From the NCBI GenBank assembly GCA_041615815.1, contig JBFJCP010000029.1:1-55473 (forward strand): a stretch of 55,473 nucleotides of DNA, given 5' to 3'. Origin of the DNA: Gemmatimonadales bacterium. GTDB taxonomy: Bacteria > Gemmatimonadota > Gemmatimonadetes > Gemmatimonadales > GWC2-71-9. Below are positions 9,574 to 46,703 of this stretch, piece after piece (the stretch's first letter is position 1; every line of letters begins with the position of its first letter). Made by a program: the position numbers and the translations under genes. Below the pieces are notes generated by a model. That model was not told where the DNA came from. It made no database searches and worked only from the letters and a program-made list of their open reading frames with translations.

Positions 9574-9702
9574 GCCAGTGTCCGGCGAAGATAAGCCGAA
9601 TCCCACCCCGGACCGGTACCCCGCTCGCAACTCCCCTTGGGCGATACCTTAACAAGCGGGCCGTTGACACGTCCTACTCTCAGACCGTGTGACGGGACGA
9701 CC

Positions 9703-11373: not shown

Positions 11374-11381
11374 GAGAAGAT

Positions 11382-27300: not shown

Positions 27301-27951
27301 CTACTCCAAGGGAACCAATCCCATCCGAATGGCATGACGCACGAGACCCGGCACGTCACGGACGCCGAGCCGTTTCATGATCTGAGCGCGGTGTGTCTCC
27401 ACCGTCTTGGTGCTGAGCTCGAGCTTGCCCGCGATCTCCTTGGTTGATGATCCTTCGGCGATGAGCTGCAGCACTTGGCGTTGCCTGGGAGACAACCGCT
27501 CACGCGGCGAGTCCCCCGAAGCAGTGGCCCGCAGATAGTTCTCCACCACCGACCTGGAGACGCCGGGACTCAGGTACGTCTCACCGCGGGCAGCCGCCCG
27601 CACGGCGATCTCCAGCTCTCCCAATCCGGCATCCTTCATGAGGTAGCCGGCGGCGCCCGCTTTGAGGGCTTGAGCGACGTACTCGTCGTCACCGTGCATC
27701 GAGAGGATGAGGACCTTGACGTCGGGATAGTGTGTGCCGATCTGCATCGCTGCATCCAGGCCGTTGAGCTCCGGCATCGTGAGGTCCATCAGCACGACGT
27801 CGGGACGGCGCGATGCAACGAACGCGACGGCCTCTCTCCCGTTGGCAACCTCGCCGATCACCTCCACACCGTCCAACTCCTCGAGCAGCGCGCGGAACCC
27901 GGAGCGGACGAGCTCATGGTCCTCGGCCAGCAGGACGCGGACGGGACGCAT
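27301..27951 (-). CDS. NarL/LuxR family DNA-binding response regulator
   Basis: LLAEDH, MDLTMP, LSPRQRQVLQLIAEG, TKEIA...TVETHR helix-turn-helix; TGATG coupling to the kinase. Confidence 0.93.
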   Translation of the reverse strand: MRPVRVLLAEDHELVRSGFRALLEELDGVEVIGEVANGREAVAFVASRRPDVVLMDLTMPELNGLDAAMQIGTHYPDVKVLILSMHGDDEYVAQALKAGAAGYLMKDAGLGELEIAVRAAARGETYLSPGVSRSVVENYLRATASGDSPRERLSPRQRQVLQLIAEGSSTKEIAGKLELSTKTVETHRAQIMKRLGVRDVPGLVRHAIRMGLVPLE

Positions 27952-29327: not shown

Positions 29328-29355
29328 CGATGTCTTCCAGACATGTCCGCGCGGT

Positions 29356-30477
29356 TCATTCCGTAGCCAACGCCTCGACGATCTCGCCTCGAGTGGTTGC
29401 ACCGCCCAACGCGGTGTTCACCATGATCAGTTCGCCCACGTTTTCCAAGGTGAGCAACCCCACGAGGTCTCCACCCCGCACCACCGGTAGCGCCGAGCAT
29501 TGCTGTGCTCGCATATGTGTGAGTGCCCGCTCCAACGGCTCGTCTTCCCGTAGGGTGGGACATTCGCCACGCATCACCTCTGCCACGGGCGTCTCCCGCC
29601 CAAGTTGCTTGAGGCCGGAAATCAAGTCCTTCCGCATCAACATTCCAATGACCCTGCCGGTCTCCGTCACGGGGAAGTCCTGCTGCGATCCGGCCAGCAG
29701 CTCTTCGATGGCCCTGTGAAGGGGATCACCGCCCTCGAGCGTGATGAAGCGGGTCATCATGGCGTCCGCTACCGGTATGCCCTCGAGGGCAACCTTGAGC
29801 TGCACCTGCTGCGACTCGGCTTGGGCACCGAGATAGACGAAGATCGCAATGAGAAACAGCACCGGGTTCCAGTTCACGAGGGCGAAGAGACCAAACAGAA
29901 TGGCCGCACCCTGACCGATGCCGGCGGCGATTTGGGTGGCGCGTACGTAGTTGAGCCTCATCGCCAGCACGGCGCGCAACCTACGTCCGCCGTCCATGGG
30001 AAACGCCGGCAGCAGGTTGAACGCCACGAGCAGCACATTCATCCAGGCGAGAGGAATGAGAATGGCTCCGGTAAGGAAGAACTGTGGATTGAGTGGCTCG
30101 AGCCGGCCGGTGATAGCCAGGCTGGTGAACAACAAGATGGCGATGACCACGTTCACGGCGGGGCCGGCAACCGCAACGAGCAGCTCTTCACTCGGCTTCT
30201 CCGGCATGCGTTCCAGCCGAGCCACGCCACCGATGGGGAGCAGGGTGATGTCTCGCGTCCGAACGCCAAAGCGCTTTGCCGTCAGTGCATGCCCGAGTTC
30301 ATGAAGAACCACACAGGAGAACACGGCCAGCACGAGAATCACTCCTCGAATTACTTGGGTCACATCTGCGCCGAGTGACGCGTACTCCCAGACCACCCAG
30401 GCGATCAGGATCAAGAACGTCCAATGCACCTGGATCTTGATTCCAGAGACTCTCCCGAGCTTCCATGACCACTTCAT
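29356..30477 (-). CDS. Site-2 protease (M50) with C-terminal CBS pair
   Basis: HELGH, AGPAVN, FNLLPAFPMDGGR, then two CBS repeats. SD GGAGG before ATG 30477. Confidence 0.92.
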   Translation of the reverse strand: MKWSWKLGRVSGIKIQVHWTFLILIAWVVWEYASLGADVTQVIRGVILVLAVFSCVVLHELGHALTAKRFGVRTRDITLLPIGGVARLERMPEKPSEELLVAVAGPAVNVVIAILLFTSLAITGRLEPLNPQFFLTGAILIPLAWMNVLLVAFNLLPAFPMDGGRRLRAVLAMRLNYVRATQIAAGIGQGAAILFGLFALVNWNPVLFLIAIFVYLGAQAESQQVQLKVALEGIPVADAMMTRFITLEGGDPLHRAIEELLAGSQQDFPVTETGRVIGMLMRKDLISGLKQLGRETPVAEVMRGECPTLREDEPLERALTHMRAQQCSALPVVRGGDLVGLLTLENVGELIMVNTALGGATTRGEIVEALATE

Positions 30478-30819
30478 TATTCTGACTGCCTCCGAATGGA
30501 TTGCCACAACCGAAAGGTACGTCACCGCGGAGGCCGCTCCAACGCCAACCCCGGGTCGATCGCCGTACGCACCGGGGTTCCAGGACGCCCTGTGCCGCGC
30601 GCGCGCGAAGCCAGTGTCCCGATTCGTGTCATTTGTACCGTCCCGAGGCAGCCCACGAAGACCGTCAAGAACGTCTAACTGGTTTTACCACAGACACTTA
30701 CTGTAGCATCCACCGCCGGAACACCGTTTGCTTTTCAAGAAGGGGTCACCGGCCCCCTCGCACGGCAGGCCGGTGTCGACACGACCACCCCACCGACACC
30801 GCACACAGAGGAGTTTCCG

Positions 30820-32058
30820 ATGTTCGCGCATCGACATCGAAGGCACGCCCCACTGGTCGCAGTCCTCGCAGGGCTATTCTTGGGGTGTAGCGACACAACG
30901 GCGCCATCGCTGGAATCCGGCGCGATACAGTTCTCGCGAGACATTACCCTACCCGAGCTCGGCGATGCATTGAGCGCCGGCCCGTCGCGTATTGAAATCG
31001 AGATCCTCGCCGATGGGGGCCTCGTCGCGCGAGAGGTGGAGCTGGAGACGGACGACGAGCTTTTCGACCGCGAAGAGATCGAGAGCCCCGTGGCGGGCGT
31101 GGAATCCGGCGCGAGCAGCGGCACCCTCATTCTCGCGCTCGGCAACCTGCGAGTGGACTTCGACGAGACTACACGCTTTCGGAGCGAGGGGAGCGACGAT
31201 CTGACCGTCACGGCATTCGTTGATCGGATCGACGCCGCCTTGGCGGAGGGCCGGATGCCGCCCGTAGAGGCCAAGCGAGCTCCCCCACTCGTTCCGCAGG
31301 ATCCGGACGATCCGAGCTTCTTCGCGACCGAGCTCCGTCTGAACGACGAAGCCGATGAACCGGAGATCGAGATCAACGTCGACGGGGATAACCTCGTGAC
31401 CAACAACGCTCCACCGCCCGATGGATGGATAGCCGTCTTGGGACTGATGATCGAACTCCGGGTCTCCGAGGGGGTCACCGAGATCGAGGCCGAGATGGAC
31501 GACTTGGACGACGAGTTCGAGTTCGAGGGCCTCGTTGCCCAGGTCGATGTGGTGGACCAAACGGTCACCCTGCAGAACGGCACGGTGATCCGTCTCGTGG
31601 ACCGTACGAAGATCGATCGTGAGCCTGGGGACGACGATCAGCTCCACTCGCTGCAAGAGGTTGCCGCCGCGCTGGATGCGGGTCAGCTCGTTGAAGCCGA
31701 GGGGGAAGGCATCGCCGAAACCGCCGATCCGTTGGTCGTGATTGCCATTGAGGTCGAGTTCGAGATCGAAGACGAGGATGACGGCATCCCCGGAGCCCAG
31801 GAGTTCGAAGGACAGATCGACGCGGTGAACCTGACGGATAGAACGTTCACTCTCTCTGGCGGGACCATTGTACGCTTCACGGATGAGACCCGCGTCGCGC
31901 AGGATGGAGATCTTCTGACACTGGAGGCGGTCGCACAAGCGCTCAATGGACCGGATCCGGTACGGGCGGAAGGCGATGCCCTGGTGGACGACGTCGGTCC
32001 TCCCCTCGGGCTCCGCGCGCTTTCGGTCAAGTTCGAGGTGGACGAGCCGGCATCGTAG
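30820..32058 (+). CDS. Acidic lipoprotein with repeated DUF5666-like beta domains
   Basis: SD GAGGAG; lipobox LFLG-C; internal repeats EFEGLVAQVD...TVTLQNGTVIR and EFEGQIDAVN...TFTLSGGTIVR; very Asp/Glu-rich. Confidence 0.72.
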   Translation: MFAHRHRRHAPLVAVLAGLFLGCSDTTAPSLESGAIQFSRDITLPELGDALSAGPSRIEIEILADGGLVAREVELETDDELFDREEIESPVAGVESGASSGTLILALGNLRVDFDETTRFRSEGSDDLTVTAFVDRIDAALAEGRMPPVEAKRAPPLVPQDPDDPSFFATELRLNDEADEPEIEINVDGDNLVTNNAPPPDGWIAVLGLMIELRVSEGVTEIEAEMDDLDDEFEFEGLVAQVDVVDQTVTLQNGTVIRLVDRTKIDREPGDDDQLHSLQEVAAALDAGQLVEAEGEGIAETADPLVVIAIEVEFEIEDEDDGIPGAQEFEGQIDAVNLTDRTFTLSGGTIVRFTDETRVAQDGDLLTLEAVAQALNGPDPVRAEGDALVDDVGPPLGLRALSVKFEVDEPAS

Positions 32059-32078
32059 CATCCTGACCGCCATTGACA

Positions 32079-32106
32079 TGAGCCCCCGGGAATCCCCGGG
32101 GGCTCA
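32079..32106. terminator. Hairpin between convergent genes (putative bidirectional terminator)
   Basis: TGAGCCCCCGGG-AATC-CCCGGGGGCTCA, perfect 12-bp stem; no U-tract. Confidence 0.65.
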
Positions 32107-32134
32107 AGCGTTCGACTCGGTACGGCAGAAGCCG

Positions 32135-32575
32135 CTACTTGATGGCGATCCGACTCTTGACGGCGGGCTCCGTTTTGGGAAGCCGCAGTGTCAACATCCC
32201 ATCCTCGTAGGTGGCCGCGACCTTGTCGGCCAGAACGGGCTTGGGAAGCCGCAACGACCGAATGAATTTCCCTTCCTCACGCTCTCTCCAGATGTACTCC
32301 TCGCTCTCGTGCTCCTTTCGGAATTCGCGCTTGCCCGAGATCGTGAGCACGTTCTGCTCGAGGCTGACATCCAGGTTCTCCTTGTGAACACCTGGTACCT
32401 CGAGTCGGATGACGAACTCCTTCTCGGTCTCCGAGCAGTCCAGGGCCGGTGCCCACTCTGTCTCGACCAACGGCGCCTCGAAACGACGGAATGGAATGTC
32501 GAACAATCGTTCGAAGAACCGGTCGAATTCCGGCCGAACCCGAGGAACGCTTGGTGCTGGTTTGGTGAGTTTCAT
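32135..32575 (-). CDS. Hsp20/alpha-crystallin small heat shock protein
   Basis: WAPALD, EVPGV, LTISG, GKFIRSLRLP, ATYEDGMLTLRLPK; SD GGAGG. Confidence 0.93.
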   Translation of the reverse strand: MKLTKPAPSVPRVRPEFDRFFERLFDIPFRRFEAPLVETEWAPALDCSETEKEFVIRLEVPGVHKENLDVSLEQNVLTISGKREFRKEHESEEYIWREREEGKFIRSLRLPKPVLADKVAATYEDGMLTLRLPKTEPAVKSRIAIK

Positions 32576-32604
32576 CGCAACCCTCCGGTTCCGTAGTACG
32601 CCAC

Positions 32605-32648
32605 ACGATAAAAACGGTCGGGTGAAGCCGACTTGAACCTCGGCTGAA
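32605..32648 (-). promoter_or_regulatory. hsp20 promoter: three 11-nt-spaced TTCA repeats plus -10
   Basis: Minus strand TTCAG (32648), TTCAA (32637), TTCAC (32626); TATCGT starts 16 nt after the last repeat (32610). Confidence 0.7.
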
Positions 32649-32673
32649 CCTCACGTATGGGTCCTCCGGTCGT

Positions 32674-32728
32674 ATGAAGATCCTTTTAATCCGCGCTCAC
32701 CTGGGTCTCATGGCATGCCGTCTACCCT
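32674..32728 (+). promoter_or_regulatory. usp-cbs-cba promoter: 11-nt-spaced repeats plus -10
   Basis: ATGAAG 32674, TTTAA 32685, CTCAC 32696, CTCAT 32707; TACCCT at 32723 (+16). Confidence 0.65.
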
Positions 32729-32766
32729 CCCTCTGTCAGAGCATTTTCCGTCCAGGAGCATTCTCG

Positions 32767-33705
32767 GTGACTCAAATCCAGTGGAAACCCGTTGTCGTCG
32801 GCGTCGACGATTCGACCGAAAGCGCCAGTGCGGCCGCCATCGGATGGAAGATCGCCCAGGCGGCGGGAACCGACTGCTATCTCGTGCACGGCACGCGGGA
32901 GGTCTCCGCCATCCCGGTGGCGCCGCCGCTCCCCCCGTTCGATCCGGCAGAGCTCAGCGAACAGCTCACACAGGCTGCCCGGACGCGGTTGGAGGGTATC
33001 CTGAGTGGTACCGTGCCAGCCGCAGTGCTCGAGCACTTCGAGGTGCGGCTGGGGAACGGTGCCTGGGCCATCCGCCACGCGGTGGAAGACCACGACGCCG
33101 GCCTCGTGGTCGTGGGGGGGAAGCACCACGCGCCGCCTGCCCGATGGCTTGGCGGGAGCACGGCCCACCATGTCGTCCGAACGGTCGACGTGCCCCTGAT
33201 GATCACCTGGTCCCCCCGCCAAGCCGTGCGGCGCATTCTCGTGGCCGTCGATCTCTCCTATGCGGCACAGCCAACCCTCGAAACCGCAGCCCAGTTCGCG
33301 AAGCTTTTCTCCGCCCAGCTTCGCATCCTGCACGTTATCGAGGAACTTCCGTACGTGGCCGAGTTGCCGATGCAGATCGATCCGGAGGACTACCGGCGGC
33401 AGTGCATGGAGCAATTCGGACAGCTGCTCGCACGGGTATTGGGCGACCGCGAGGTCGAGCATGCGGTGCACTCCGGGACACCCTCGAGAGTCATAGTTGA
33501 CGAGAGTGGTTCCTGGGATGCAGATCTGGTTATCGTCGGCTCGCATGGACGGGGATGGGTGGACCGGCTGCTGATCGGCAGCACCACGGAACGGCTCATC
33601 AACCACTTGCCCACGTCATTGCTGGTCGTTCCCGTCCGGGCTTCCGCGGAGCAAAGCACCGTCTTGCGACTCACCGGCGCAACAACTAAACGGGCCAAGG
33701 TGTGA
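32767..33705 (+). CDS. Tandem-domain universal stress protein
   Basis: SD AGGAG then GTG 32767; PVVVGVDDS...LGGSTAHHVV and RILVAVDLS...VGSHGRG...LIGSTTERL. Confidence 0.9.
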   Translation: MTQIQWKPVVVGVDDSTESASAAAIGWKIAQAAGTDCYLVHGTREVSAIPVAPPLPPFDPAELSEQLTQAARTRLEGILSGTVPAAVLEHFEVRLGNGAWAIRHAVEDHDAGLVVVGGKHHAPPARWLGGSTAHHVVRTVDVPLMITWSPRQAVRRILVAVDLSYAAQPTLETAAQFAKLFSAQLRILHVIEELPYVAELPMQIDPEDYRRQCMEQFGQLLARVLGDREVEHAVHSGTPSRVIVDESGSWDADLVIVGSHGRGWVDRLLIGSTTERLINHLPTSLLVVPVRASAEQSTVLRLTGATTKRAKV

Positions 33706-33719
33706 CGGATGAGGCTGCC

Positions 33720-34121
33720 ATGAAAGTCGCCGAATTGATGGAAACGAACCTGAAAGTGGTGATGGATGACACTACCGTGGCCGAGGCCGTCGTCACCTTG
33801 GCCGATGCCCACGTTTCCGCAATGCCCGTGCTGGACCGCCAAAGCCGTTTCGTGGGTGTTCTCTCGACCACGGACGTGCTACAGGCGGAGGCGGAAGCGG
33901 CGAACGCAGAAGAGCGGGAACGGCTGTTCCAAGACACGCTGGTGCGTGAGATCATGAGCACGAAACCGCAGACGGTCGAACCCGATGACGACATCAAGGA
34001 AGTAGCCCAGCGCATGTTGTATCTCGATGTCCACCGCCTGTTCGTCGTGTACGACGGCGAGCTGGTTGGCGTTGTCTCACAAAGCGACATCGTGCGCGCG
34101 GTGGCGACCGCAAAACTGTAA
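33720..34121 (+). CDS. CBS domain pair protein
   Basis: MKVAELM...MPVLD...VGVLSTTD and VREIM...LVGVVSQSD. Confidence 0.88.
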   Translation: MKVAELMETNLKVVMDDTTVAEAVVTLADAHVSAMPVLDRQSRFVGVLSTTDVLQAEAEAANAEERERLFQDTLVREIMSTKPQTVEPDDDIKEVAQRMLYLDVHRLFVVYDGELVGVVSQSDIVRAVATAKL

Positions 34122-34158
34122 GTCTATCCTGTCGTTCCCGGAAAGACCGGAGGAATTC

Positions 34159-34299
34159 ATGAGCGACCTCGATCGCGATGTTGGAAAGCATCCGCGCGGT
34201 ACTCTGGCGATCATGGCCGTGTACGGCGTGGTGTTCGTGCTCGGGTGGCTGGCGCTGTTCTTCTTCGTGTATCTACCGCGCGGCGCCGTGACGAGGTGA
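34159..34299 (+). CDS. cbaD: ba3-type cytochrome c oxidase subunit IIa (46 aa)
   Basis: SD GGAGG; single TM peptide PRGTLAIM...W...YLPRG resembling Thermus subunit IIa; directly upstream of subunit II. Confidence 0.78.
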   Translation: MSDLDRDVGKHPRGTLAIMAVYGVVFVLGWLALFFFVYLPRGAVTR

Positions 34300-34302
34300 C
34301 CC

Positions 34303-34779
34303 ATGCATGTTGACCTATACGAGAAGTTCTGGATGTGGGCCGCAGGCATCATGATCGCGGGATTTCTGGTTATCACCGCGTTCGTGACCGTCTCACAAGG
34401 ACGGGTTCCCCCGAGCCACGTCGAAACGATTGACCCGCAAACCGTTTGGACCGACGCGCGATTCGCCGACCGCGGGGTGAGGACCCAACCCGGCGGCGGC
34501 GTCGAAGTCACGATGATCGCCATGACGTTCGCGTTTCAACCGTCGGAGATTCGCATCCCAGCCGGGAGACCGGTGACGTTTCGCATCACCGCCGCGGACG
34601 TGGTACATGGATTCCAGATTATCGGCACGAACGGCAATACCATGGTGGTCCCTGGGTACGTGAGTCAGTTCACCATGGTGTTCGACACCCCCGGTGACTA
34701 TCTCATCGTCTGCAACGAGTATTGCGGATTGGGCCACCACGGCATGTTCGGCAAGCTGATCGTGGAAGAGGCATCATGA
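34303..34779 (+). CDS. cbaB: ba3-type cytochrome c oxidase subunit II (CuA)
   Basis: One N-terminal TM; DVVHGF and CNEYCGLGHHGM CuA ligands. Confidence 0.92.
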   Translation: MHVDLYEKFWMWAAGIMIAGFLVITAFVTVSQGRVPPSHVETIDPQTVWTDARFADRGVRTQPGGGVEVTMIAMTFAFQPSEIRIPAGRPVTFRITAADVVHGFQIIGTNGNTMVVPGYVSQFTMVFDTPGDYLIVCNEYCGLGHHGMFGKLIVEEAS

Positions 34780-36398
34780 TTCCCAATCGAAGGCTGGCCA
34801 CGGCCAATATCGGCGTTGCAGTGGGCGCCTTCGCGCTGGCCACATTCATGGCCTTCATGCAAGCGCTCTCCCGAGCCAACCTGGACCTGCCCGGGCGGTC
34901 CGCCCGGATGTATTACCTCTCGGTCACGGGCCACGGAGTGTTGATGGCTCTCGTCTTCACGACATTCTTCATCATGGGGATGGGTGTCGCCTTCACGACC
35001 AGAGCGTTGGATCGCCCACTCCGGTTCGCCCGTCTGGGCTGGGTGGGCTTTTGGCTTGGGCTCGTAGGATCGCTCGCTGCCCTGTGGGCAATCTTCTGGG
35101 GCAAAGCGACGGTCCTCTATACGTTCTATCCGCCGCTCCAAGCCCACCCCGCCTTCTACATTGGCCTGACCCTACTCGTGGTCGGCTCATGGCTCTGGAG
35201 TATCGTGATCATCGCGACGTACCTCGCGTGGCGGCGGGAGCACCCGGCGACGCCGGTGCCCCTCGCAGTACACGGCATGCTGGCCACGATCATCGTATGG
35301 CTCATCGCCACCGTCGGCGTTGCCGCCGAGATGTTGCTGCAGCTCATCCCGTGGTCCTTGGGGCTCACGGACACCGTGGACCCGCTGCTCGCGCGAATTC
35401 TCTTTTGGTACTTTGGGCACCCGCTCGTCTACTTCTGGCTCATTCCGGCCTACGTCGTCTGGTACACGGTCTTGCCCAAGGTAGCCGGTGGCAGGTTGTT
35501 CAGTGATCCGCTGGCCCGCATGGTGTTCATTCTCTTCATCGTCTTGTCGACTCCCGTTGGTTTCCATCATCAATTCATGGATCCGGGCGTCCAGTCGGGT
35601 TGGAAGCTCTTCCACACGTTCAACACCTTCGGCATCCTGTTCCCGAGCTTCGTCACCGCGTTCACCATCGTGGCCTCATTGGAAGTCGCAGGCCGGATGC
35701 GGGGCGCCACGGGCTTGTTCGACTGGCTCGGAAAGCTGCCGTGGGGCGATCCGCTCGTGGCCAGCGTTCTCCTCAGCATGTTGTTGTTCGCCGTGGGAGG
35801 CTTTGGGGGAAGCATCAACGCCGCGTTTGGAATGAATGCAACGGTGCATAACACGGCGTGGATCCAGGGACATTTTCATTTGACGGTGGGGACCGCCACA
35901 GCATTGACCTTCATGGGCGTCGCATATTGGCTGGTCCCGAAGCTCGTGGGACGCGACCTCGAATTGGGTCTCCTGGCAAAGGTGCAGCCGTATCTGTGGT
36001 TCCTCGGCATGCTGCTCTTCTCCATCGCCAACCACATCACCGGGCTCATGGGGATGCCGCGCCGCGTGTACGACGCGAGCTACGGCGGGAGCGCCATTGC
36101 GGCCGAGTGGAGCGGACTCACGCTCGTATCGGCCGTCGGTGGCATTCTCCTGTTTCTCAGTGCCGCGTTCTTCCTCTTGGTCATGCTCGGCACCGTGCTG
36201 GCCGGGCGGCGAGCAGAACAACCGGCCCTCGAATTCGCGGCGCCTCTCGAGGGCGCGCCGGAGCGGCGAGGGGTTTGGGACCGCATCGGTCTGTGGGTGG
36301 GTGTGGCCATCGTCCTGGTCGTCATCGCGTATGCGTATCCGCTCATCCAACATCTCCAACTGGAGCGGTTTGGTTCACCCGGATTCCGGCCGTTCTGA
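34776..36398 (+). CDS. cbaA: B-family (ba3-type) heme-copper oxidase subunit I
   Basis: ATGA coupling; TGHGVLM, LYTFYPPL, FWYFGHPLVYFW (His-Tyr), VGFHH, VHNTAWIQGHFH, GMPRR. Confidence 0.93.
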   Translation: MIPNRRLATANIGVAVGAFALATFMAFMQALSRANLDLPGRSARMYYLSVTGHGVLMALVFTTFFIMGMGVAFTTRALDRPLRFARLGWVGFWLGLVGSLAALWAIFWGKATVLYTFYPPLQAHPAFYIGLTLLVVGSWLWSIVIIATYLAWRREHPATPVPLAVHGMLATIIVWLIATVGVAAEMLLQLIPWSLGLTDTVDPLLARILFWYFGHPLVYFWLIPAYVVWYTVLPKVAGGRLFSDPLARMVFILFIVLSTPVGFHHQFMDPGVQSGWKLFHTFNTFGILFPSFVTAFTIVASLEVAGRMRGATGLFDWLGKLPWGDPLVASVLLSMLLFAVGGFGGSINAAFGMNATVHNTAWIQGHFHLTVGTATALTFMGVAYWLVPKLVGRDLELGLLAKVQPYLWFLGMLLFSIANHITGLMGMPRRVYDASYGGSAIAAEWSGLTLVSAVGGILLFLSAAFFLLVMLGTVLAGRRAEQPALEFAAPLEGAPERRGVWDRIGLWVGVAIVLVVIAYAYPLIQHLQLERFGSPGFRPF

Positions 36399-36460: not shown

Positions 36461-37189
36461 TCATAGGGATTGCTGGAAGAGCACCATGGCCACCAAGGTG
36501 AGACTCACCAACAGGGCAACGGCCGGCTTGCGGGCTCGCCCGTAGGCCTCGGGCAGGAGTTCCACCAGCACCATGAAGACCATCGCGCCGGCCGCGAAGC
36601 CGATCCCGTAGGGCAACGCCGCATGAAACGCTTCCACGAACAGAAATGCCGGGACCGCCATGATGGGTTGCGGCAGAGAAGATACCACGCTCCATCCGGC
36701 ACACCCCAAGACCGACACCCCCCGCGGACGAAGCACAGCACTGATCGCGAGCCCCTCGGGGACGTTGTGCACCGCTATGGCCGCTGTAATTACCACGGCC
36801 AGCGTCACCCCCCCACCGAATGCCACACCCACGGCCACGCCTTCTGAAAAGGAGTGCGCCGTCATCACCACTACCATGAGCACCATTTGGCGAGCACCGG
36901 CTCCACGCGCCCTGCCGAACTGGATGTCGTAATGCCCCAGCACTCGCTGAGTGACCAGGATGAACACGACCCCCACCGTCGCGCCCACGATCGTCTGCCA
37001 GGCCCCGAACGCGGTACCCTGCGCCACCAAACCAAAGCTGGCTCCTAACATCAGCCCCGCCGCTGTGGCATTGGCATACGCGACCAGTCGGGTCGATACC
37101 GTCCGGACCAAGGCAAACGGCAGTGCACCGAGCCCGGTGGCCAGCGCGGTGATCAACCCGTACATCAGGACGACCAATGCCGGATGCAT
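36461..37189 (-). CDS. ZIP family metal transporter (ZupT/GufA-like)
   Basis: ATGLGALP, AAGLMLGAS, HSFSEG and HNVPEG, GFAAGAM, ELLPE. Confidence 0.88.
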   Translation of the reverse strand: MHPALVVLMYGLITALATGLGALPFALVRTVSTRLVAYANATAAGLMLGASFGLVAQGTAFGAWQTIVGATVGVVFILVTQRVLGHYDIQFGRARGAGARQMVLMVVVMTAHSFSEGVAVGVAFGGGVTLAVVITAAIAVHNVPEGLAISAVLRPRGVSVLGCAGWSVVSSLPQPIMAVPAFLFVEAFHAALPYGIGFAAGAMVFMVLVELLPEAYGRARKPAVALLVSLTLVAMVLFQQSL

Positions 37190-37217
37190 TCAGCGACTCA
37201 CCGGAGGGCCGCGCTCC

Positions 37218-37949
37218 TCATGGGCCAATTCCCACCAAGAGGACCACCATGCCCATACTCAGGATCGTGACGAGGGCGATCGTGGTTGGTCCGGCCTGCC
37301 GATACGACTCCGGGAGCAGCTCGACCATGACCAGATAGACCAGCGATCCCACGGCAAAGCCCAGCGCCCACTGCAGGGTGGATGGGGCCGCCTGCACGAT
37401 CGCGTATGTGAACACCGCCAGCAGGATCTGGCTGACGTTCGTCACCACCGCGAGGCCAGCAGACTCCCAATGCCCAACGCCGCGACTGGTGAGAATGGCG
37501 GACAGGACGGTCCCTTCCGGAACGTTATGGACGGCGATGGCGAGAGCCATGAACACACCAAAGGGCACGCTCACCACCATCGCGACGCCTATCGCAACGC
37601 CTTCTGGAGCGGCGTGTAGGGTGTTGATGAGCATCACCTTGTAGCCGTAATCGGCACTGGTCTCGCCAATGCGGTTGAGATCCAGATCGGCAGTTTTGGA
37701 CGCGGCGTGCGTGAAGTAGACGAAGGCGACCCCGAGAACTGCTCCCGCCGCCCCAACGGCTGGGCTATGATCGAACCCCGCCACCATGAGGGTGTACGCC
37801 GCGCCGAGCATCAGCCCCGCCGCCAAGGCGTTGGCCCACCCCATCCAGAATGCTGGCGGGCGGGGCCTGAACACCAGCGGAAGTGGACCCAGCGCCGCCA
37901 TCCCGGCGGCGATGGACGCGTAGAGCAGGACGATGAGGGTCAGGTCCAT
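37218..37949 (-). CDS. ZIP family metal transporter, second paralogue
   Basis: AAGLMLGA, HAAPEG and HNVPEG, ELLPE. Start is ATG 37949 or GTG 37961. Confidence 0.85.
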   Translation of the reverse strand: MDLTLIVLLYASIAAGMAALGPLPLVFRPRPPAFWMGWANALAAGLMLGAAYTLMVAGFDHSPAVGAAGAVLGVAFVYFTHAASKTADLDLNRIGETSADYGYKVMLINTLHAAPEGVAIGVAMVVSVPFGVFMALAIAVHNVPEGTVLSAILTSRGVGHWESAGLAVVTNVSQILLAVFTYAIVQAAPSTLQWALGFAVGSLVYLVMVELLPESYRQAGPTTIALVTILSMGMVVLLVGIGP

Positions 37950-38049
37950 GAGCCGTACCACATGAGTCGCTTGAGACAGTAGTCCTGTTGAACTCGGATG
38001 TCACGCCAGCCTGGCAGCCCAGCCGGGCCTTGGGTAAGCTTCCCCACAT

Positions 38050-39288
38050 ATGCCTGAGGTTTCCTCGGTTCAGCGAGGCGCCCTCTGGAAACGCGTCGAG
38101 CGGCTGTGCCGTGCGGCGATCCGCATCACCGCCGAGCACGAGCTCAATCGTGTGCTCCAAGAGGTGGCCGATTCCGCCCGCGAAGTCATCGGTGCCAAGT
38201 ACGCCGCGCTCGGCGTCTTGGATTCGTCGGGGACCGCGCTCGAAACCTTCGTGGTGAGCGGACTCAGTAAGGAAGAGTACGAGCGGATCGGAGACCTGCC
38301 CACCGGAAAGGGGTTGCTCGGGGTGCTTATCGAGCAACCTAAGCCCTTGAGAATCAAGAATTTACGCGAACACCCCCGCGCCCTTGGATTCCCTCGCAAC
38401 CACCCACCGATGCACTCGTTCCTCGGGGTGCCCATTTTGGGCCGGGACGGTCCCATCGGCAATCTCTACCTCACCGAGAAGACAGGCGCCGAGGCGTTCT
38501 CCCGGGAGGACGAAGCCTTGGCCGTGATGCTCGCCGCCCACGTCGCAGTGGCCGTCGAGAACGCGAGGCTCTACGAAGAGCGGGAACGACTCCTCGACGA
38601 GCTGAAGGGACTTCAGGTTTCCCGAGACCGGTTCTTCGCCATGATCAACCACGAGCTGCGCAATGCGCTCACGGCCGTCCACGGCTGGAGTGAGCTTTGG
38701 CTCCGCAAGGCCGGGGACAACCCGCCACGGGCAGCCCGGGAGGTGACGGAGTCGGCCGAGCGCGCCATCCGCCTCCTCGAGGATATGCTCGATCTCAGTC
38801 GACTCGATGCGGACAAGCTCAAGCCCCGGATCGAAGATGTCGAGATGGGCGGCGTCGTGCGGGAGTCGGTCGCGTCCCTGGAGCCGGCCGCTCACCACCG
38901 GGGCGTTCGGATCGAAACCGTCGGGGCCTCCGACCCGCAGCTCTGTCGTTCTGACTCGCTACGCATCCGACAGATCATGGTCAATCTCTTGAGCAACGCT
39001 GTGCGGCACAGCCCGGAAAACGAGACCGTGACGGTCGAGCTGCGCGTAGACGACGCGAGTCTGGAGCTGCATGTCGTGGATCGAGGCGAGGGGATCCCCG
39101 TGGCGCAACAAGCCCTGATCTTCGAGGCGTTCGAGCGGGCCGGCGCTGACCAGGAGCGGGGGACGGGACTGGGCCTCACGTTGTCCAAGAAGTTGGCGCA
39201 CCTCTTGGGTGGCGACCTAACCGTTGCCAGTCAACCTGGTGCTGGCGCAAGGTTTACGTTGCGAATCCCGCGGTGGTCGCAATCATGA
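38050..39288 (+). CDS. Soluble sensor kinase: DosS/DosT-like GAF domain plus HisKA/HATPase
   Basis: GAF with PKPLR...GFPRNHPPMHSFLGVPI...GNLYLTEK; NHELRN, NLLSNAVR, DRGEG, GTGLGL; no TM. Confidence 0.9.
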   Translation: MPEVSSVQRGALWKRVERLCRAAIRITAEHELNRVLQEVADSAREVIGAKYAALGVLDSSGTALETFVVSGLSKEEYERIGDLPTGKGLLGVLIEQPKPLRIKNLREHPRALGFPRNHPPMHSFLGVPILGRDGPIGNLYLTEKTGAEAFSREDEALAVMLAAHVAVAVENARLYEERERLLDELKGLQVSRDRFFAMINHELRNALTAVHGWSELWLRKAGDNPPRAAREVTESAERAIRLLEDMLDLSRLDADKLKPRIEDVEMGGVVRESVASLEPAAHHRGVRIETVGASDPQLCRSDSLRIRQIMVNLLSNAVRHSPENETVTVELRVDDASLELHVVDRGEGIPVAQQALIFEAFERAGADQERGTGLGLTLSKKLAHLLGGDLTVASQPGAGARFTLRIPRWSQS

Positions 39289-39339
39289 AGACCGGTTCAC
39301 GACCTCTTCAAATGGGGATCAGCCATGCGCGGATAGCCT
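39285..39339 (+). promoter_or_regulatory. Response-regulator promoter: 11-nt-spaced repeats plus -10
   Basis: ATGAAG 39285, TTCAC 39296, TTCAA 39307, ATCAG 39318; TAGCCT at 39334 (+16), 7 nt before the ATG. Confidence 0.7.
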
Positions 39340-39346
39340 TCTCCGC

Positions 39347-40033
39347 ATGAGAATCCTGATCGTGGAAGACGACCGGAAGGTCGCCGGGTTCATCGAGATG
39401 GGTCTTCGCGAAGAGGGCTACGCCGTCGACGTCGCCAAGGACGGCGATGAGGCTTCCACGTTGGCCCACGTGAACGACTATGATGCCATCTTGTTGGACC
39501 TCATGCTTCCCAAGAAGAACGGCCTGCAGGTGGCGTCCGAGCTTCGGCGTGAGGGTCGCCGCACACCCATTCTCATGTTGACCGCTCGCGATGCTACGGA
39601 AGACGTGGTGCGCGGCCTCGATGCCGGTGCGGACGACTACCTCACCAAGCCCTTCAAGTTTGACGAGCTGCTGGCCCGAGTACGCGCGCTGGTGCGGCGT
39701 GGCGGGAGTGCGAGGCTCGAACGACTCACCTACGGGCCGCTGGAGTTGGATCGGTTGAAACACCGCGCGTTCGCCGGAGGCAGACGCCTGGAGCTCACGC
39801 CTCGGGAGTTTCAACTCCTAGAGCACTTCATGCTCCATCCCGAGAACGTGGTACGCCGTACGGAGTTGCTCGAGAAGGTCTGGGATATGCACTTCGATCC
39901 CGAGAGCAACGTCGTCGATGTTCACGTCGGTAATCTGCGACGCAAGCTCCGCGAAGCGGGCCACGATCGAATCATCATGACGGTTCGTGGAGTGGGATTC
40001 CAGCTGAAGGTGCCGGACGGCGACGAGGCCTGA
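39347..40033 (+). CDS. OmpR/PhoB family response regulator (CusR/MprA-like)
   Basis: MRILIVEDD, LDLMLP, GADDYLTKPF, winged helix LTPREF...SNVVDVHV...TVRGVG. Confidence 0.94.
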   Translation: MRILIVEDDRKVAGFIEMGLREEGYAVDVAKDGDEASTLAHVNDYDAILLDLMLPKKNGLQVASELRREGRRTPILMLTARDATEDVVRGLDAGADDYLTKPFKFDELLARVRALVRRGGSARLERLTYGPLELDRLKHRAFAGGRRLELTPREFQLLEHFMLHPENVVRRTELLEKVWDMHFDPESNVVDVHVGNLRRKLREAGHDRIIMTVRGVGFQLKVPDGDEA

Positions 40034-41415
40034 TGCGTTCGCTGCGCCGCACGCTCGCGGTGCGGTTTAGTGTTACCGTCTTCTTTGCGCTGTTGTTGAT
40101 TGCGCTGTGGGCCTATCTGGGTGCACAGCGCATTCTGCGTGCGGAGTTGGACCGCGGCCTAGCGGCGGCCTGCGAACTGGAAGGCGCGGTCTTGGCCGCA
40201 GGTCTCGAACTGCCCACCCACCCAGGACCCCAAGACCTCGAGCGCTTCGTCGCCACGGTCAACCGCTTCGTCGCGATCAGGAACGCCGACGGCTCGATCC
40301 GACAAACCAACACGCCGCTAGCCCAGGACCTTCCGGCCGACCCGGTGAGCGTCGCCCAGGCCGGAGGCGGCGCCCGCAGCTGGAAGTCCGAGCGATGGAA
40401 AGGCCAACGGATCCGCTCCGTGTACGGCCCGGTTCCGGGAAGCACGGACGGCCGCGTGATCCAGGTATCCGCGTCCTTGATTCCCCTACGGGCCGCCAAT
40501 CGAGAGATCCTCTTTTTGATGCTGGGCACAGTGCTTTTGGGCACGGTGGCAACCTCGCTCGGAGCCGCATGGCTCGCGGGCTCCGCCGTCCAGCCGGTCA
40601 TGGACATCACCGCCCAGGCGGAGGAGATCGGCACGGGACGACTCGGACACCGCATCACTGCTCACTGGGATGTGGCCGAGTTTCAGGGACTCGTGCGAGT
40701 CCTGAATGGCATGTTGAAGCGTTTGGACAGCATGCTGGAGTCACAGCGGCGCATGGTGGCAGACGCTGGCCATGATCTCCGTACCCCGCTCACGGCCATG
40801 CGGGGGGAGATCGAAGTGGCCCTTCGAGGCTCGCGATCGCCAGACGAATATCGCCAGGTGCTTCACAGTGTCATGGAGGAGGTGGATAGACTGGGATCGA
40901 TCTCCGAGTCCCTGGTGCTCCTGGCGCGGGTGGAGGGCGGCACCCTCGTTCCAAGCCCCGTGCCCTGTGATCTCATCGACTTGCTCGAGGGAGCGGTGCG
41001 GCGAGCACAGGCTAGAGGAGGCGACCGCACATTCGGACTGACGTCGCCGGTGGCCATCCCACAAGTCGAGGTCGATCAGCGGATGCTGACGATCGTGTTC
41101 GACCATTTGCTGGATAACTGCCTACAGCACACTCCACCCGGAACCGCGGTCGAGCTCTCCATAACACGAGACGGCCGCTGGGCCAGAGTCGACGTGGATG
41201 ACGATGGCCCGGGGGTCCCCACCGAGGGGTTGGAACGGCTCTTCGACCGGTTCTATCGAGACGACACAGCGAGGACCCGAACGGCCGGAGCTGGACTCGG
41301 CTTGTCCATTGCCTCGGCCATCGTGGGCACGCATGGCGGCAGGATCGAGGCTGCCCGGAGCCGGTTGGGGGGTCTACGTGTGACGATCCGTCTGCCGCTC
41401 CTCCGCCAGAGTTGA
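40033..41415 (+). CDS. Membrane HAMP-domain sensor histidine kinase
   Basis: TGATG coupling; 2 TM, HAMP, DAGHDLRTPL, DDGPG, FDRFYR, GAGLGL. Confidence 0.92.
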   Translation: MRSLRRTLAVRFSVTVFFALLLIALWAYLGAQRILRAELDRGLAAACELEGAVLAAGLELPTHPGPQDLERFVATVNRFVAIRNADGSIRQTNTPLAQDLPADPVSVAQAGGGARSWKSERWKGQRIRSVYGPVPGSTDGRVIQVSASLIPLRAANREILFLMLGTVLLGTVATSLGAAWLAGSAVQPVMDITAQAEEIGTGRLGHRITAHWDVAEFQGLVRVLNGMLKRLDSMLESQRRMVADAGHDLRTPLTAMRGEIEVALRGSRSPDEYRQVLHSVMEEVDRLGSISESLVLLARVEGGTLVPSPVPCDLIDLLEGAVRRAQARGGDRTFGLTSPVAIPQVEVDQRMLTIVFDHLLDNCLQHTPPGTAVELSITRDGRWARVDVDDDGPGVPTEGLERLFDRFYRDDTARTRTAGAGLGLSIASAIVGTHGGRIEAARSRLGGLRVTIRLPLLRQS

Positions 41416-41421
41416 GCCGCT

Positions 41422-41465
41422 TTCACTTTACGTTCCAAAAAACTTCACAGCACGATTTGCACGTT
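41422..41465 (+). promoter_or_regulatory. DUF2892 promoter: 11-nt-spaced repeats plus -10-like hexamer
   Basis: TTCAC 41422, TTCCA 41433, TTCAC 41444; CACGTT at 41460 (+16). Confidence 0.62.
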
Positions 41466-41502: not shown

Positions 41503-41721
41503 ATGCAACGTAACGTTGGGCGGGCGGACGCTTGGATTCGAGGAGGGTTGGCCGTTTTGTTATTTGGGATGGCTGCCATCTTGAACCATCTCTCCCTCGT
41601 CTCTCTCGCGGCCGCTCTCGCAGCACTCATCCTGGTGGGAACCGCACTGACCAGGAGCTGCCCGTTGTATCGAGTGCTGGGCATCGACTCTCAGCGCGAT
41701 CGCCGGACGGGTCACGCGTGA
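41503..41721 (+). CDS. DUF2892 (YgaP-like) small membrane protein
   Basis: SD AGGAG; NVGRADAWIR, two TM, SCPLYRVLGI. Confidence 0.85.
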   Translation: MQRNVGRADAWIRGGLAVLLFGMAAILNHLSLVSLAAALAALILVGTALTRSCPLYRVLGIDSQRDRRTGHA

Positions 41722-43408: not shown

Positions 43409-43464
43409 TTTAAAAAGTCTTCATAATCCCGCCACACCTCCTTCATGGCGGGCCCCGTTACTTG
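43409..43464 (+). promoter_or_regulatory. nos operon promoter: 11-nt-spaced repeats
   Basis: TTTAA 43409, TTCAT 43420, GCCAC 43431, TTCAT 43442; TTACTTG at 43458 (+16, imperfect -10). Confidence 0.58.
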
Positions 43465-44046: not shown

Positions 44047-46008
44047 ATGCGATCCAACCGATTCTTGTGGACCCTTTCCTCGGCTGCCGTTGTCGCCGTC
44101 TTGGCGGTCGTGGGCGCGCAATCTTGCGCGGGGCCCGGTGCAACGACCGATGTCAGCTCTATCGCCCGGCAACGAAATCTCACCGATGCCGATGTGGTGG
44201 CGGCCCTCAAGACCTATCAGCCCACGGGCCGAATGGACGAGTACATCCTGTTTGGCTCCGGCGGACACTCCGGACAAGTTCTGGTCATTGGGGTGCCCTC
44301 GATGCGGCTCCTCAAGGTGATTGCCGCATTCACGCCAGAGCCTTGGCAGGGGTTCGCCTACGGCGCCGAGGAGCACAAGACATTGCTGGCCAGCGGTCGG
44401 ATGTCCGGTCACGACATCACGTGGGGTGATACCCATCACCCGGCGTTATCGGAGACGGATGGCGACTACGATGGGCAGTTCCTATTCATCAACGACAAAG
44501 CCAACCCTCGGATCGCGTTGATCGATCTCCGCGACTTCGAGACCAAGCAGATCGTCACCAATCCCAACATGGGGACCAACCACGGCGGCGCCTTCGTCAC
44601 GCCAAACACGGAGTACGTCATCGAGGGGGCGCAATACGCGGTTCCCCTCTGGACCGATTACGCCGACGTGGATCGCTACCAAGAGGATTACCGCGGTCTC
44701 GTGACCCTGTGGAAGTTCGACCGGCAACGCGGTCGGATCGACCAGGCGAGCTCCTTTTCGATCGAGTTACCGCCGTACTGGCACGACCTGTCCGACGCCG
44801 GAAAAGGACCTTCGGCTGGGTGGGCATTCCTGAACTCGTTCAATACCGAGATGGCCACTGGCGGCATCGAAGCCGGCAACCCACCGTTCGAAGCCGGCGC
44901 GTCCCAGAACGACATGGATTATCTCCATATCATCAATTGGGAAAAGGCGGCCCAGGTGGCAGCGCAGGCGGGCAAAACGCGCATGGCGCGGGGCCAACGC
45001 GTGATTCCGCTCCAGACCGCCATTGACGAGGGACTGCTCTTCTTCGTCCCCGAGCCCAAGAGCCCTCACGGATCAGACGTCACGCCTGACGGCCGCTACA
45101 TCATCGTCTCGGGTAAGCTGGATCCCCATGTTACGGTCTACTCATGGGAGAAGATCAAGCAGGCCATCGACGCCAAGAACTTCAGTGGCACCGATTCTTA
45201 CGGGGTGCCGGTGATCGACTTCAGCTCGGTGATCGACGGACAGCTCGAGGTGGGCCTGGGCCCATTGCACACCCAGTTCGACGACCAGGGGAACGCGTAC
45301 ACCAGCATTTTCCTCGATACCAAGGTGACGAAGTGGAGCTTGAATCCGCTCGCGGTGGTCGACCAGATCGATGTGCACTACAACGTCGGGCACTTGGCGG
45401 CGGCGGAGGGTGATACCCGCTCACCGGACGGGAAGTACCTGATTTCGATGAACAAGTGGTCCATCGATCGGTTCAACGACGTGGGCCCTCTCCTCCCACA
45501 GAACTTCCAGCTGATCGACATCTCGGGCGAGCGGATGCAGCTCCTGTACGACATGCCGATCGGGATCGGCGAGCCGCACTACGCGCAAATGATCAAGGCG
45601 GACAAGCTGCAACCGTTCCGCGTGTACCCGCAGATCGGCTATGACCCCGGCACGATGAGCGCCGCCAGAAACGCCGTGATGGGTGGCCAAGAGGGCATCC
45701 AGCGTAGCGGCAATCAGGTGACCGTACGGATGACGGCGATCCGTAGTCACTTCACACCGGAGTACATCCGTGTGCGGCAGGGTGATCGTGTAACGATCCA
45801 TATCACCAGCATCGAGCAGGCTCACGACGCGACCCATGGCTTTGGGATCTCGAAATACAACATCAACCTGAGCCTCGAGCCCGGAGAGTCTCAGACCGTC
45901 ACGTTCGTGGCCGATCAAGCCGGCGTATTCCCCTTCTACTGCACCGAATTCTGCTCGGCGCTGCACCTGGAGATGACGGGTTATCTCCTGGTAGAGCCGA
46001 GGGGCTAA
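44047..46008 (+). CDS. nosZ: Clade II (Sec-type) nitrous oxide reductase
   Basis: No twin-arginine; SGGHSGQ, GVPSMR; CuZ His motifs DTHH, NHGG, SPHG, PLHT, VGH, EPH; CuA THGF...CTEFCSALHLEM. Confidence 0.97.
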   Translation: MRSNRFLWTLSSAAVVAVLAVVGAQSCAGPGATTDVSSIARQRNLTDADVVAALKTYQPTGRMDEYILFGSGGHSGQVLVIGVPSMRLLKVIAAFTPEPWQGFAYGAEEHKTLLASGRMSGHDITWGDTHHPALSETDGDYDGQFLFINDKANPRIALIDLRDFETKQIVTNPNMGTNHGGAFVTPNTEYVIEGAQYAVPLWTDYADVDRYQEDYRGLVTLWKFDRQRGRIDQASSFSIELPPYWHDLSDAGKGPSAGWAFLNSFNTEMATGGIEAGNPPFEAGASQNDMDYLHIINWEKAAQVAAQAGKTRMARGQRVIPLQTAIDEGLLFFVPEPKSPHGSDVTPDGRYIIVSGKLDPHVTVYSWEKIKQAIDAKNFSGTDSYGVPVIDFSSVIDGQLEVGLGPLHTQFDDQGNAYTSIFLDTKVTKWSLNPLAVVDQIDVHYNVGHLAAAEGDTRSPDGKYLISMNKWSIDRFNDVGPLLPQNFQLIDISGERMQLLYDMPIGIGEPHYAQMIKADKLQPFRVYPQIGYDPGTMSAARNAVMGGQEGIQRSGNQVTVRMTAIRSHFTPEYIRVRQGDRVTIHITSIEQAHDATHGFGISKYNINLSLEPGESQTVTFVADQAGVFPFYCTEFCSALHLEMTGYLLVEPRG

Positions 46009-46100: not shown

Positions 46101-46703
46101 ATGGACAAACTCACTTCGTTCTTTCAGGGCCAGCTCTCCAATACGAGCCGGATCCTCATCGTAGTCGCGACGCTCGCGATCTTACCAAGCATCTTTCTGC
46201 CTACGTGGACTATTACGCTCCGGGCACCACAGTATCCGCAGGGCCTCGAGCTCACGATCTATCCGAATACCGTGGGCGGTGACGTGCGCGAGATCAACAT
46301 CCTGAACCACTATATCGGGATGCACGAGATCGAGGCAGACGAGTTCCCGGAATTTCGTTTCATCCCTTTCTTCATTCTTCGGTTTCTCGGATTTGCGCTC
46401 CTGACCGCTCTGATTGGCCGTATGCCGATCGCTGCGCTGGGTTGGATGGACTTCGTGCTTTTCGGGATGGTGATGCTCTACACCATGCAGCATTGGCTCT
46501 ATGAGTTCGGGCAGAACCTCTCGCCAAACGCGCCGCTCCAGGTAGATCCGTTCGCGCCCAACCTGCTGGGGACCACGACCGTGGGTCAGTTTGCCGTGGC
46601 GAGTTGGCCGGCCACCGGAGCCATCCTCATGGCTTTGGCCGGCCTCATCGGTCCGGTGATCGTGCTGTTTGAGTGGCGGCGCATGCGGCGGTCTCCGGGA
46701 TGA
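46101..46703 (+). CDS. nosB: NosB-like membrane protein of clade II nos clusters
   Basis: PTWTITLRAPQYPQGL, EINILNHYIGM, WLYEFGQNL; position directly after nosZ. Confidence 0.85.
   Translation: MDKLTSFFQGQLSNTSRILIVVATLAILPSIFLPTWTITLRAPQYPQGLELTIYPNTVGGDVREINILNHYIGMHEIEADEFPEFRFIPFFILRFLGFALLTALIGRMPIAALGWMDFVLFGMVMLYTMQHWLYEFGQNLSPNAPLQVDPFAPNLLGTTTVGQFAVASWPATGAILMALAGLIGPVIVLFEWRRMRRSPG

Follow-up and report, generated by a model that had tools for sequence, protein, structure and literature searches.

A predicted DosT-like heme-GAF sensor kinase linked to an OmpR-type regulator in Gemmatimonadales, and a predicted low-oxygen regulon

What does the soluble sensor kinase encoded beside the nitrous oxide reductase genes of a Gemmatimonadales bacterium sense, and which response regulator does it address? 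The kinase, here named HK1, is encoded on a DNA stretch of 55,473 nucleotides (contig JBFJCP010000029.1, which is contig C29 of genome G000; hereafter the window), whose closest relatives are metagenome-assembled genomes of Gemmatimonadales/Gemmatimonadota. An earlier note on this DNA had described HK1 as a DosS/DosT-like heme-GAF sensor on a HisKA transmitter, and had proposed that gas sensing by HK1 and an extracytoplasmic signal, possibly copper, converge on one OmpR-type regulator. The results presented here lead us to favour, as the rather probable reading, that HK1 is a direct O2/NO/CO sensor which drives an OmpR-type activator of a low-oxygen regulon, and that the membrane kinase HK2 is an accessory input. 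The described gene order, in which HK1 directly precedes the regulator and a membrane HAMP kinase, was found as stated:

38050..39288, + strand: HK1, soluble sensor kinase of 412 amino acids with a DosT-like GAF, HisKA and HATPase_c (open reading frame, Pfam, PDB sequence matches, AlphaFold model)
38137..38559, + strand: GAF domain of HK1, residues 30-170, with a predicted heme pocket (putative heme binding)
38650..38667, + strand: H-box of HK1 with phospho-His201 (sequence and orthologue alignment)
39347..40033, + strand: OmpR/PhoB-family response regulator of 228 amino acids, Asp51 (Response_reg and Trans_reg_C, Pfam)
40033..41415, + strand: HK2, membrane HAMP-HisKA kinase, phospho-His247, Pro at H+5, probably accessory (open reading frame, Pfam, NCBIfam)

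A Pfam scan of HK1 detected GAF (residues 30-170), HisKA (192-254, E 3e-14) and HATPase_c domains, and no match to HisKA_3. The five best PDB sequence matches of HK1 are all GAF-A domains of DosT or DosS. The best of them, 2vzw (E 1.9e-39), is the DosT heme GAF (PMC8534201), and DevS/DosS entries match at E 1e-38 to 1.3e-37. In these alignments His118 (codon 38401) and Tyr140 (codon 38467), which are 22 residues apart as the note had it, fall on the His and Tyr of the DosT/DosS motifs, i.e. on the proximal and distal positions, respectively. According to PMC4082495, the proximal heme ligand is His149 in DosS and His147 in DosT, and the distal hydrogen-bond partner is Tyr171 and Tyr169. Among 49 HK1 orthologues (aligned at no less than 42% identity over 380 residues; the corresponding alignments have at least 58% for the regulators and at least 34% for HK2) His118 and Tyr140 are invariant, and Gly55, which occupies the position of DosS Glu87 and DosT Gly85, is present in 48. 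We call HK1 DosT-like because of its similarity to GAF-A domains, the invariance of His118 and Tyr140, and the presence of Gly55 at the DosT Gly85 position. Thus, the sequence data confirm that a DosS/DosT-like heme-GAF sits on a HisKA transmitter, and leave us in little doubt in predicting that HK1 senses gas in the cytoplasm through heme b.

The GAF domain might instead respond to the redox state of heme, to the availability of heme or solely to NO, rather than to O2. Whether even DosS senses gas or redox is disputed (PMC4082495); moreover, position 57 of HK1 is hydrophobic (Leu in 42/49), unlike His89 of DosS or the Arg of DosT, and nirK and nos are among the predicted targets described below. 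We consider this alternative most improbable, however, given that the Gly at the DosT Gly85 position is a feature linked, though not without dispute, to a stable oxy complex (PMC4082495), and that PFL, hydrogenase and Usp targets suit anoxia.

In the AlphaFold model (mean pLDDT 83) the single GAF of HK1 is followed by one long helix (residues 152-221) that runs into the DHp domain; the Foldseek matches listed for this model were kinase cores, HK853-type ones included, and phytochromes, and added nothing on the GAF. The H-box has Glu at H+1 and Asn at H+4 in all 49 orthologues. The GAF is 47-59% identical to the DosS-like GAFs fetched from outside Gemmatimonadota, and tblastn of the genome found no second DosS-like GAF in G000, HK1 being the sole one.

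What is conserved is the combination of HK1 and the OmpR regulator. In our set of 55 non-duplicate HK1 loci (the duplicates L056, L070 and L074 were excluded throughout) the regulator lies directly 3' of HK1 in 47 of the 51 informative loci and is absent from four, four further loci being uninformative. Receiver helix 1 and the recognition helix of the regulator are nearly invariant among the HK1-linked copies. Ten of 26 HK1 genomes, all ten with the regulator, contain no HK2-like kinase at E<=1e-50. Because of this synteny, and because it persists where the genome has no HK2, it is very likely that HK1 phosphorylates the regulator at 39347. The synteny check therefore bears out the pairing that had been suggested, and it is the synteny that carries it: the argument that HisKA kinases usually pair with OmpR regulators is weak by itself. 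In favour of it, two further genomes without a full HK1 match have the regulator at a contig end, in one of them together with a C-terminal piece of HK1. Against the pairing stand the four loci in which HK1 has no regulator. In addition, the genomes compared here are related to one another, and hence co-occurrence counts are not independent.

The partner regulator of DosS/DosT is of the NarL type, and outside Gemmatimonadota most of the fetched DosS-like GAF loci have a NarL neighbour. HK1 could therefore be an orphan or cross-talking kinase with its true partner elsewhere, such as the NarL regulator of the window, the OmpR regulator being HK2's alone. Also in line with this are the four loci without regulator and the fact that the characterised DosS/DosT kinases all signal to a DosR-type partner (PMC4082495). 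The NarL gene to which the earlier note had pointed does exist:

27301-27954: NarL regulator, overlapping its own GAF-HisKA_3 kinase at 27951-29402

The GAF of this HisKA_3 kinase lacks the His motif. This NarL gene is close to HK1 in one relative only (L029), and the regulator at 27301 was rejected as partner of HK1 since it has its own overlapping kinase and is not syntenic. As HK1 also remains linked to the OmpR regulator in genomes in which no HK2 was found, there is little to recommend an orphan HK1, and we rate it as quite improbable.

To which genes would an HK1-controlled regulator bind? The spacer between HK1 and the regulator gene, ~57 nucleotides long, carries a conserved pattern consisting of an inverted TGAAG, three TTCA-type repeats and TAnnnT, which in the window appears as follows:

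39286..39339, + strand: predicted autoregulatory promoter of the regulator, with the inverted TGAAG at 39286-39290 and TTCA-type repeats at 39296, 39307 and 39318 (11-nucleotide period)
39334-39339, + strand: -10-like hexamer of this promoter, 7 nucleotides before the ATG, which points to a leaderless transcript

In 41 of the 48 spacers the first repeat lies 49-53 nucleotides upstream of the ATG, and in 33 of 48 TAnnnT is found 4-9 nucleotides upstream of it, compared with 0, 0, 8 and 2 of 48 in four control windows. Shine-Dalgarno-like words occur in 7 of the 48 spacers only. A weight matrix was built from 38 spacers, leaving out eight with a shifted or missing motif, the gapped L041 and G000 itself. 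With that site outside the training set, the G000 spacer is nevertheless the top site of its genome (24.8 bits). When G000 was scanned, 17 sites exceeded 16 bits, against 2 for the reversed sequence; 11 of the top 16 sites are intergenic, versus a background of 6%. Nine sites exceed 20 bits at a period of 11, whereas periods 8, 10, 13 and 14 gave 1, 0, 0 and 0. A TAnnnT filter caught only 4 of 83 sites in G000; more informative was a looser search for nAnnnT in other genomes.

Promoter geometry was examined on 60 of the 82 exact-pattern sites outside G000, which were taken from 16 other genomes, with distant genera favoured, and chosen by the repeat pattern alone. An nAnnnT element is located exactly 12 nucleotides after the last repeat in 35 of the 60 sites, and in 10 or fewer at any other offset. 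Since this element had not been used in selecting the sites, its position reflects a fixed promoter geometry. In the case of PhoB, an activator, the repeats cover the -35 region; the repeats studied here likewise lie over that region, a geometry that suggests activation. ArcA binds two to five direct repeats with 11-bp spacing (PMC3798270). Taken together, it is quite likely that the regulator binds the TTCA box.

The box also follows the sensor at the level of genomes. The exact pattern occurs 197 times in the 62 HK1-positive genomes of the G000 family (control 13), i.e. a mean of 3.2 per genome, versus a mean of 0.8 in HK1-negative family members, where 7 of the 10 sites are in the two genomes that have the regulator at a contig end. 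It occurs 15 times in the 33 genomes of the sister families (control 12), and the means of the sister groups, 0.4-0.5, are near control.

Several observations weigh against assigning the box to this regulator. Periods 9 and 12 reach high scores as often or more often, which we ascribe to codon frame. Thirteen of the 62 HK1-positive genomes contain no exact match. Fifteen genomes from other classes together contain 45 exact matches (control 14; mean 3.0 versus 0.9). In the five of these genomes that were tested, both the GAF and a close regulator are missing, so that such a box can serve a different OmpR-family protein. Similarly, G156 (4 sites), G148 (3) and G040 (5; 87% complete) lack a close regulator. 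G000 itself encodes five further unambiguous DNA-binding domains of the OmpR type, which might recognise the box. The sensor and its pairing might thus be real and the box belong to a different OmpR-family regulator, for example of the PhoB/PhoP type, so that the regulon would be misassigned; indeed, the PHO boxes of Streptomyces are 11-nucleotide direct repeats with GTTCACC (PMC6988585). This is unlikely in our view. The strongest genomic site fronts the present regulator and is kept in ~41/48 spacers, and exact matches are at background in the HK1-less sister families, including G028 and G030, which have a regulator-HK2 pair only. A PHO box reading was rejected: the pst-pho region of G000 (C10:39000-49500, minus strand), where a separate PhoB-like gene is located, lacks the box, its best site scoring 6.8 bits.

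We return to the TTCA box as the predicted site of the HK1-linked regulator. HK1, the regulator and HK2 are flanked by a Usp-CBS-oxidase-ZIP block on one side and a cytochrome c-porin-cytochrome c-nosZ block on the other, and three further predicted boxes of the window lie in front of these genes:

32621..32649, - strand: predicted regulator box, 18.8 bits, with a -10-like hexamer 12 nucleotides downstream, before hsp20 (32135-32575, - strand)
41421..41449, + strand: predicted regulator box, 14.4 bits, before genes for a YgaP-like small membrane protein (41503-41721), a cytochrome c (41858) and a porin (42293)
43419..43447, + strand: predicted regulator box, 12.0 bits, before genes for a cytochrome c (probable start 43574), nosZ, nosD and ABC-transporter genes
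44047-46008, + strand: nosZ, clade II, Sec-dependent (TIGR04246, 870 bits, cut-off 625)

The box before hsp20 has the divergent Usp-CBS-oxidase genes on its other side. In L029, L031, L055, L057 and L079 the nos block or its cytochrome c gene is likewise preceded by a site above 10 bits, and no such site was found within 330 nucleotides of nosZ in L043, L064, L073 (9.5) or L075. Elsewhere in G000, boxes precede genes for multiheme cytochromes, ccmE-ccmF, Usp, CBS, hemerythrin and FtsH as well as unrelated genes. In the relatives they precede genes for NiFe hydrogenase, nirK (TIGR02376 above cut-off), PFL and its activase, 2-oxoacid:ferredoxin oxidoreductase, a NapC/NirT cytochrome, Usp, CBS and Hsp20, and also those for peptidases, aconitase and proteins without known function. 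By our own count, 18 of the 60 foreign sites lie before low-oxygen or dormancy-type genes (first or second gene), the G000 baseline being 4.6%. Upstream regions of Usp genes exceed 10 bits in 21 of 52 cases, versus 2 of 52 when reversed; for the upstream regions of HK1 and of ZIP genes the numbers are 1/51 and 0/13.

These data indicate that the predicted regulon is likely to be induced at low oxygen. The counter-evidence comes mainly from G000. The pooled enrichment in this genome (9/28 versus 87/2077) uses a target category defined post hoc; single sets chosen a priori are weak (Usp 1/4, CBS 1/4, multiheme 2/8 leaders); and the promoters of the hydrogenase, nirK-like and oxidase genes reach no more than 1-7 bits. 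In relatives, none of 7 coxII upstream regions exceeds 10 bits. As a separate observation, two exact boxes are located where a gene for a radical SAM protein begins, one that has weak matches of the NirJ2/AhbD type (G000:C2:88089-88260, minus strand, and L160:7720-9150).

The note had let two kinases converge on one regulator, with copper as a candidate for the second signal. HK2 is translationally coupled to the regulator in the window, its ATG overlapping the stop codon of the regulator gene (shared position 40033). At six specificity positions of helix 1, HK1 is HK2's best match among the 20 other HisKA kinases of G000 (21 in all, found by pattern), with 4/6 identical. Gene overlap and helix-1 match make it probable that in G000 HK2 still addresses the same regulator, a part of the proposal that stands. 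This likeness is not exclusive, however: a PhoR-like kinase equals HK2 in BLOSUM score when compared with HK1, and 4/6 identities are likewise found for two CckA-like kinases. Of the 47 HK1-regulator loci, 14 have HK2 as the next gene and 30 lack it; the remaining three are cut off by a contig edge. Since HK2 follows the regulator in a minority of loci, convergence of two kinases is not the core of the system.

In 20 of these 30 loci the regulator gene is followed by one for a heavy-metal P-type ATPase, which is also found further downstream in L034 and L035. This gene (e.g. L036:6737-8626, minus strand; L047:11285-13165, plus strand) encodes a TPCP motif, matched TIGR01525 above cut-off in the two cases tested, and probably is co-transcribed from the boxed regulator promoter because it usually overlaps the regulator stop codon. 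Five genomes contain a separate regulator-HK2 pair with a regulator 62-68% identical to the present one. In a tree these regulators fall outside the 45 HK1-linked ones, as a sister group with weak support (85/72). From this we infer that HK1 was recruited to a pre-existing regulator-HK2 pair and that HK2 was often lost later.

The ATPase genes, the gene overlap, the helix-1 match and the sister position of the separate pairs would all be compatible with O2/NO/CO (HK1) and extracytoplasmic copper (HK2) being two positive inputs on one regulator of copper enzymes. The same holds for the heavy-metal families TIGR01386 and TIGR01387, the best NCBIfam matches of HK2 and the regulator. Both matches are below cut-off, however (221/293 and 232/279 bits), and the outside domain of HK2 has no column with His, Met or Cys in >=30% of 22 rows. 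Some relatives of HK2 appear degenerate, with the phospho-His changed to Arg in L057 and the outside domain largely deleted in L067 and L138. In addition, 30 of 47 loci have no HK2 beside the regulator, its helix-1 likeness to HK1 is shared with other kinases, and the majority of predicted targets are not copper enzymes. Copper was therefore rejected as the signal of HK2, and we judge that role very unlikely; the scheme with two positive inputs appears more doubtful still.

A different division of labour between the kinases can be considered. All 22 HK2 sequences have Pro at H+5, whereas the 49 HK1 orthologues have Ala or Ser there and never Pro. The P222A substitution in VicK abolishes phosphatase and spares kinase activity (PMC3582566), and Thr or Asn at H+4 is needed for phosphatase activity of HisKA kinases (PMC3510030). 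HK1 keeps the H+4 Asn linked to that activity, and most lineages do without HK2. That kinase and phosphatase are split, with HK2 as the main phosphatase, is only a possibility.

Based on these results we propose the following working model. By analogy with DosT, O2 on the ferrous heme, with His118 proximal and Tyr140 distal, would keep the HK1 kinase off. Loss of O2, or binding of NO or CO, would lead to autophosphorylation of His201 and transfer to Asp51 of the regulator. The phosphorylated regulator would bind the three TTCA direct repeats with 11-nucleotide spacing over the -35 region, ending 12 nucleotides before the -10 element. It would activate its own leaderless gene, which amounts to positive feedback, the sensor gene having no box, and a low-oxygen regulon comprising nos, nirK, multiheme and monoheme cytochromes c and their maturation, hydrogenase, PFL, 2-oxoacid:ferredoxin oxidoreductase, Usp, CBS and Hsp20. 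HK2 would be the older membrane partner of the regulator, kept in a minority of lineages including G000, providing a second input and possibly the main phosphatase.

Known O2 control of nos transcription is exerted by FNR-type regulators (10.1101/2022.10.27.514152). No FNR-type cysteine cluster was found in the two Crp-family proteins of G000 that were examined; the genome has two further weak matches. More speculatively, and with considerable reserve, all elements may be joined: in a large, uncultured and FNR-less Gemmatimonadales family, the master oxygen switch would be a DosT-type O2 sensor grafted on an OmpR/HAMP-kinase pair and would govern, via the box, clade II N2O reductase together with the anaerobic programme, with HK1 acting as kinase only and HK2 resetting the regulator on a second signal.

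How does the system relate to known ones? With DosT/DosS-DosR of Mycobacterium tuberculosis it shares the GAF-A sequence, the positions of proximal His and distal Tyr, the DosT-type Gly and, as in DosT, a soluble kinase; the predicted target classes Usp, CBS and Hsp20, which belong to the DosR regulon, are also common to both. It differs from it in that HK1 has a single GAF instead of the tandem GAF-A/GAF-B, in that its transmitter is HisKA and not HisKA_3 as in DosS (HisKA_3/NarL is also what is seen in actinobacterial loci), in that the regulator is of the OmpR type with direct repeats whereas DosR is NarL-type, and in having predicted respiratory targets (nos, nirK, multiheme cytochromes). 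The system thus lacks three defining features of DosS/DosT-DosR; its input is DosT-like and its output ArcA/ResD-like. The regulator shows the OmpR/PhoB family features, i.e. receiver and Trans_reg_C with the phospho-Asp present. ResE-ResD of Bacillus subtilis likewise consists of a HisKA kinase and an OmpR-family activator of low-oxygen genes. The same applies to SrrB-SrrA of Staphylococcus aureus (PMC8534201). Unlike HK1, the kinases of these two systems have membrane Cache/PAS sensors which respond to quinone redox, and no heme-GAF. FixL has a HisKA-type kinase core, and FixJ is LuxR-type. FixL is, like the predicted HK1, a heme O2 sensor (PMC8534201), but its heme is bound in a PAS domain and FixJ is not of the OmpR type. 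ArcA of Escherichia coli is also an OmpR-family low-oxygen regulator that recognises direct repeats at 11-bp spacing (PMC3798270), but its kinase ArcB is a membrane-bound hybrid that monitors quinone redox (PMC8534201), the repeat sequence differs, and ArcA largely represses whereas the box geometry found here suggests activation. CusS-CusR and CzcS-CzcR (TIGR01386, TIGR01387) are the best NCBIfam families of HK2 and the regulator and have the same layout of a regulator followed by a HAMP kinase, but differ in the sub-threshold scores, in the missing metal ligands of HK2 and in that most lineages pair the present regulator with a heme kinase instead. All parts are therefore known, and the combination is a variant rather than a new kind of system. 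In the open-access literature searched, neither a heme-GAF/OmpR system nor a nos regulator in Gemmatimonadota is described.

If our reading is correct, a sensor, a regulator, a promoter box and a regulon can be named for low-oxygen expression in a widespread family, many members of which have clade II nosZ. The NosZ enzyme destroys the greenhouse gas nitrous oxide, and its gene is probably among those switched on. The box would allow O2-regulated genes to be predicted in metagenomes, and the parts are small and soluble. The system would also illustrate how, in nature, a sensor domain can be rewired: here from HisKA_3/NarL to HisKA/OmpR signalling, with similar stress targets.

At E<=1e-60, HK1 was detected in 62 of 74 genomes of the G000 family. 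Two sister families with 33 genomes yielded a single case, the remainder of the class 4 among 28 genomes, and the 15 genomes of other classes none. At 1e-30, 6096 of 8000 scored protein clusters match HK1, a count that includes generic kinases. In a FastTree analysis of 46 sampled GAFs, the 21 Gemmatimonadales rows are on one branch (support 90) amid actinobacterial and chloroflexal DosS-like GAFs, most of whose loci adjoin NarL regulators. The tree is compatible with one fusion event behind the Gemmatimonadales HK1 GAFs. In Methylomirabilota (L087-L089) a DosS-like GAF, in L087 on a HisKA core, is followed by a receiver-type protein other than the present OmpR regulator; these GAFs are outside the Gemmatimonadales group, which suggests a separate rewiring. 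G148 (L257-L261), of another family, has five GAF matches with 33-42% identity in long open frames of ~800 residues. Two HK1 copies are present in some genomes (G019, G063, G155), and the second copy of G019 (G019:C8:54681, L033) has no adjoining regulator.

Some further features of the window deserve mention. The region 29356-36398 adjoining the system encodes an M50 peptidase with CBS domains, Hsp20, Usp, CBS and a two-subunit heme-copper oxidase cluster; the first four we take to resemble members of the DosR regulon. Two tandem ZIP-family transporter genes (36461-37961, minus strand) are divergent from HK1 and kept in close relatives. Between nosZ and nosD, positions 46101-46703 (plus strand) encode a membrane protein of 200 amino acids without Pfam or NCBIfam match, presumably the one labelled nosB. 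Finally, a single-module gene resembling those for nonribosomal peptide synthetases (A-T-TE) is followed by DUF1800 and DUF1501 genes at 6901-12656 (plus strand), and preceded by genes for two flavin oxidoreductases and a Rieske oxygenase.

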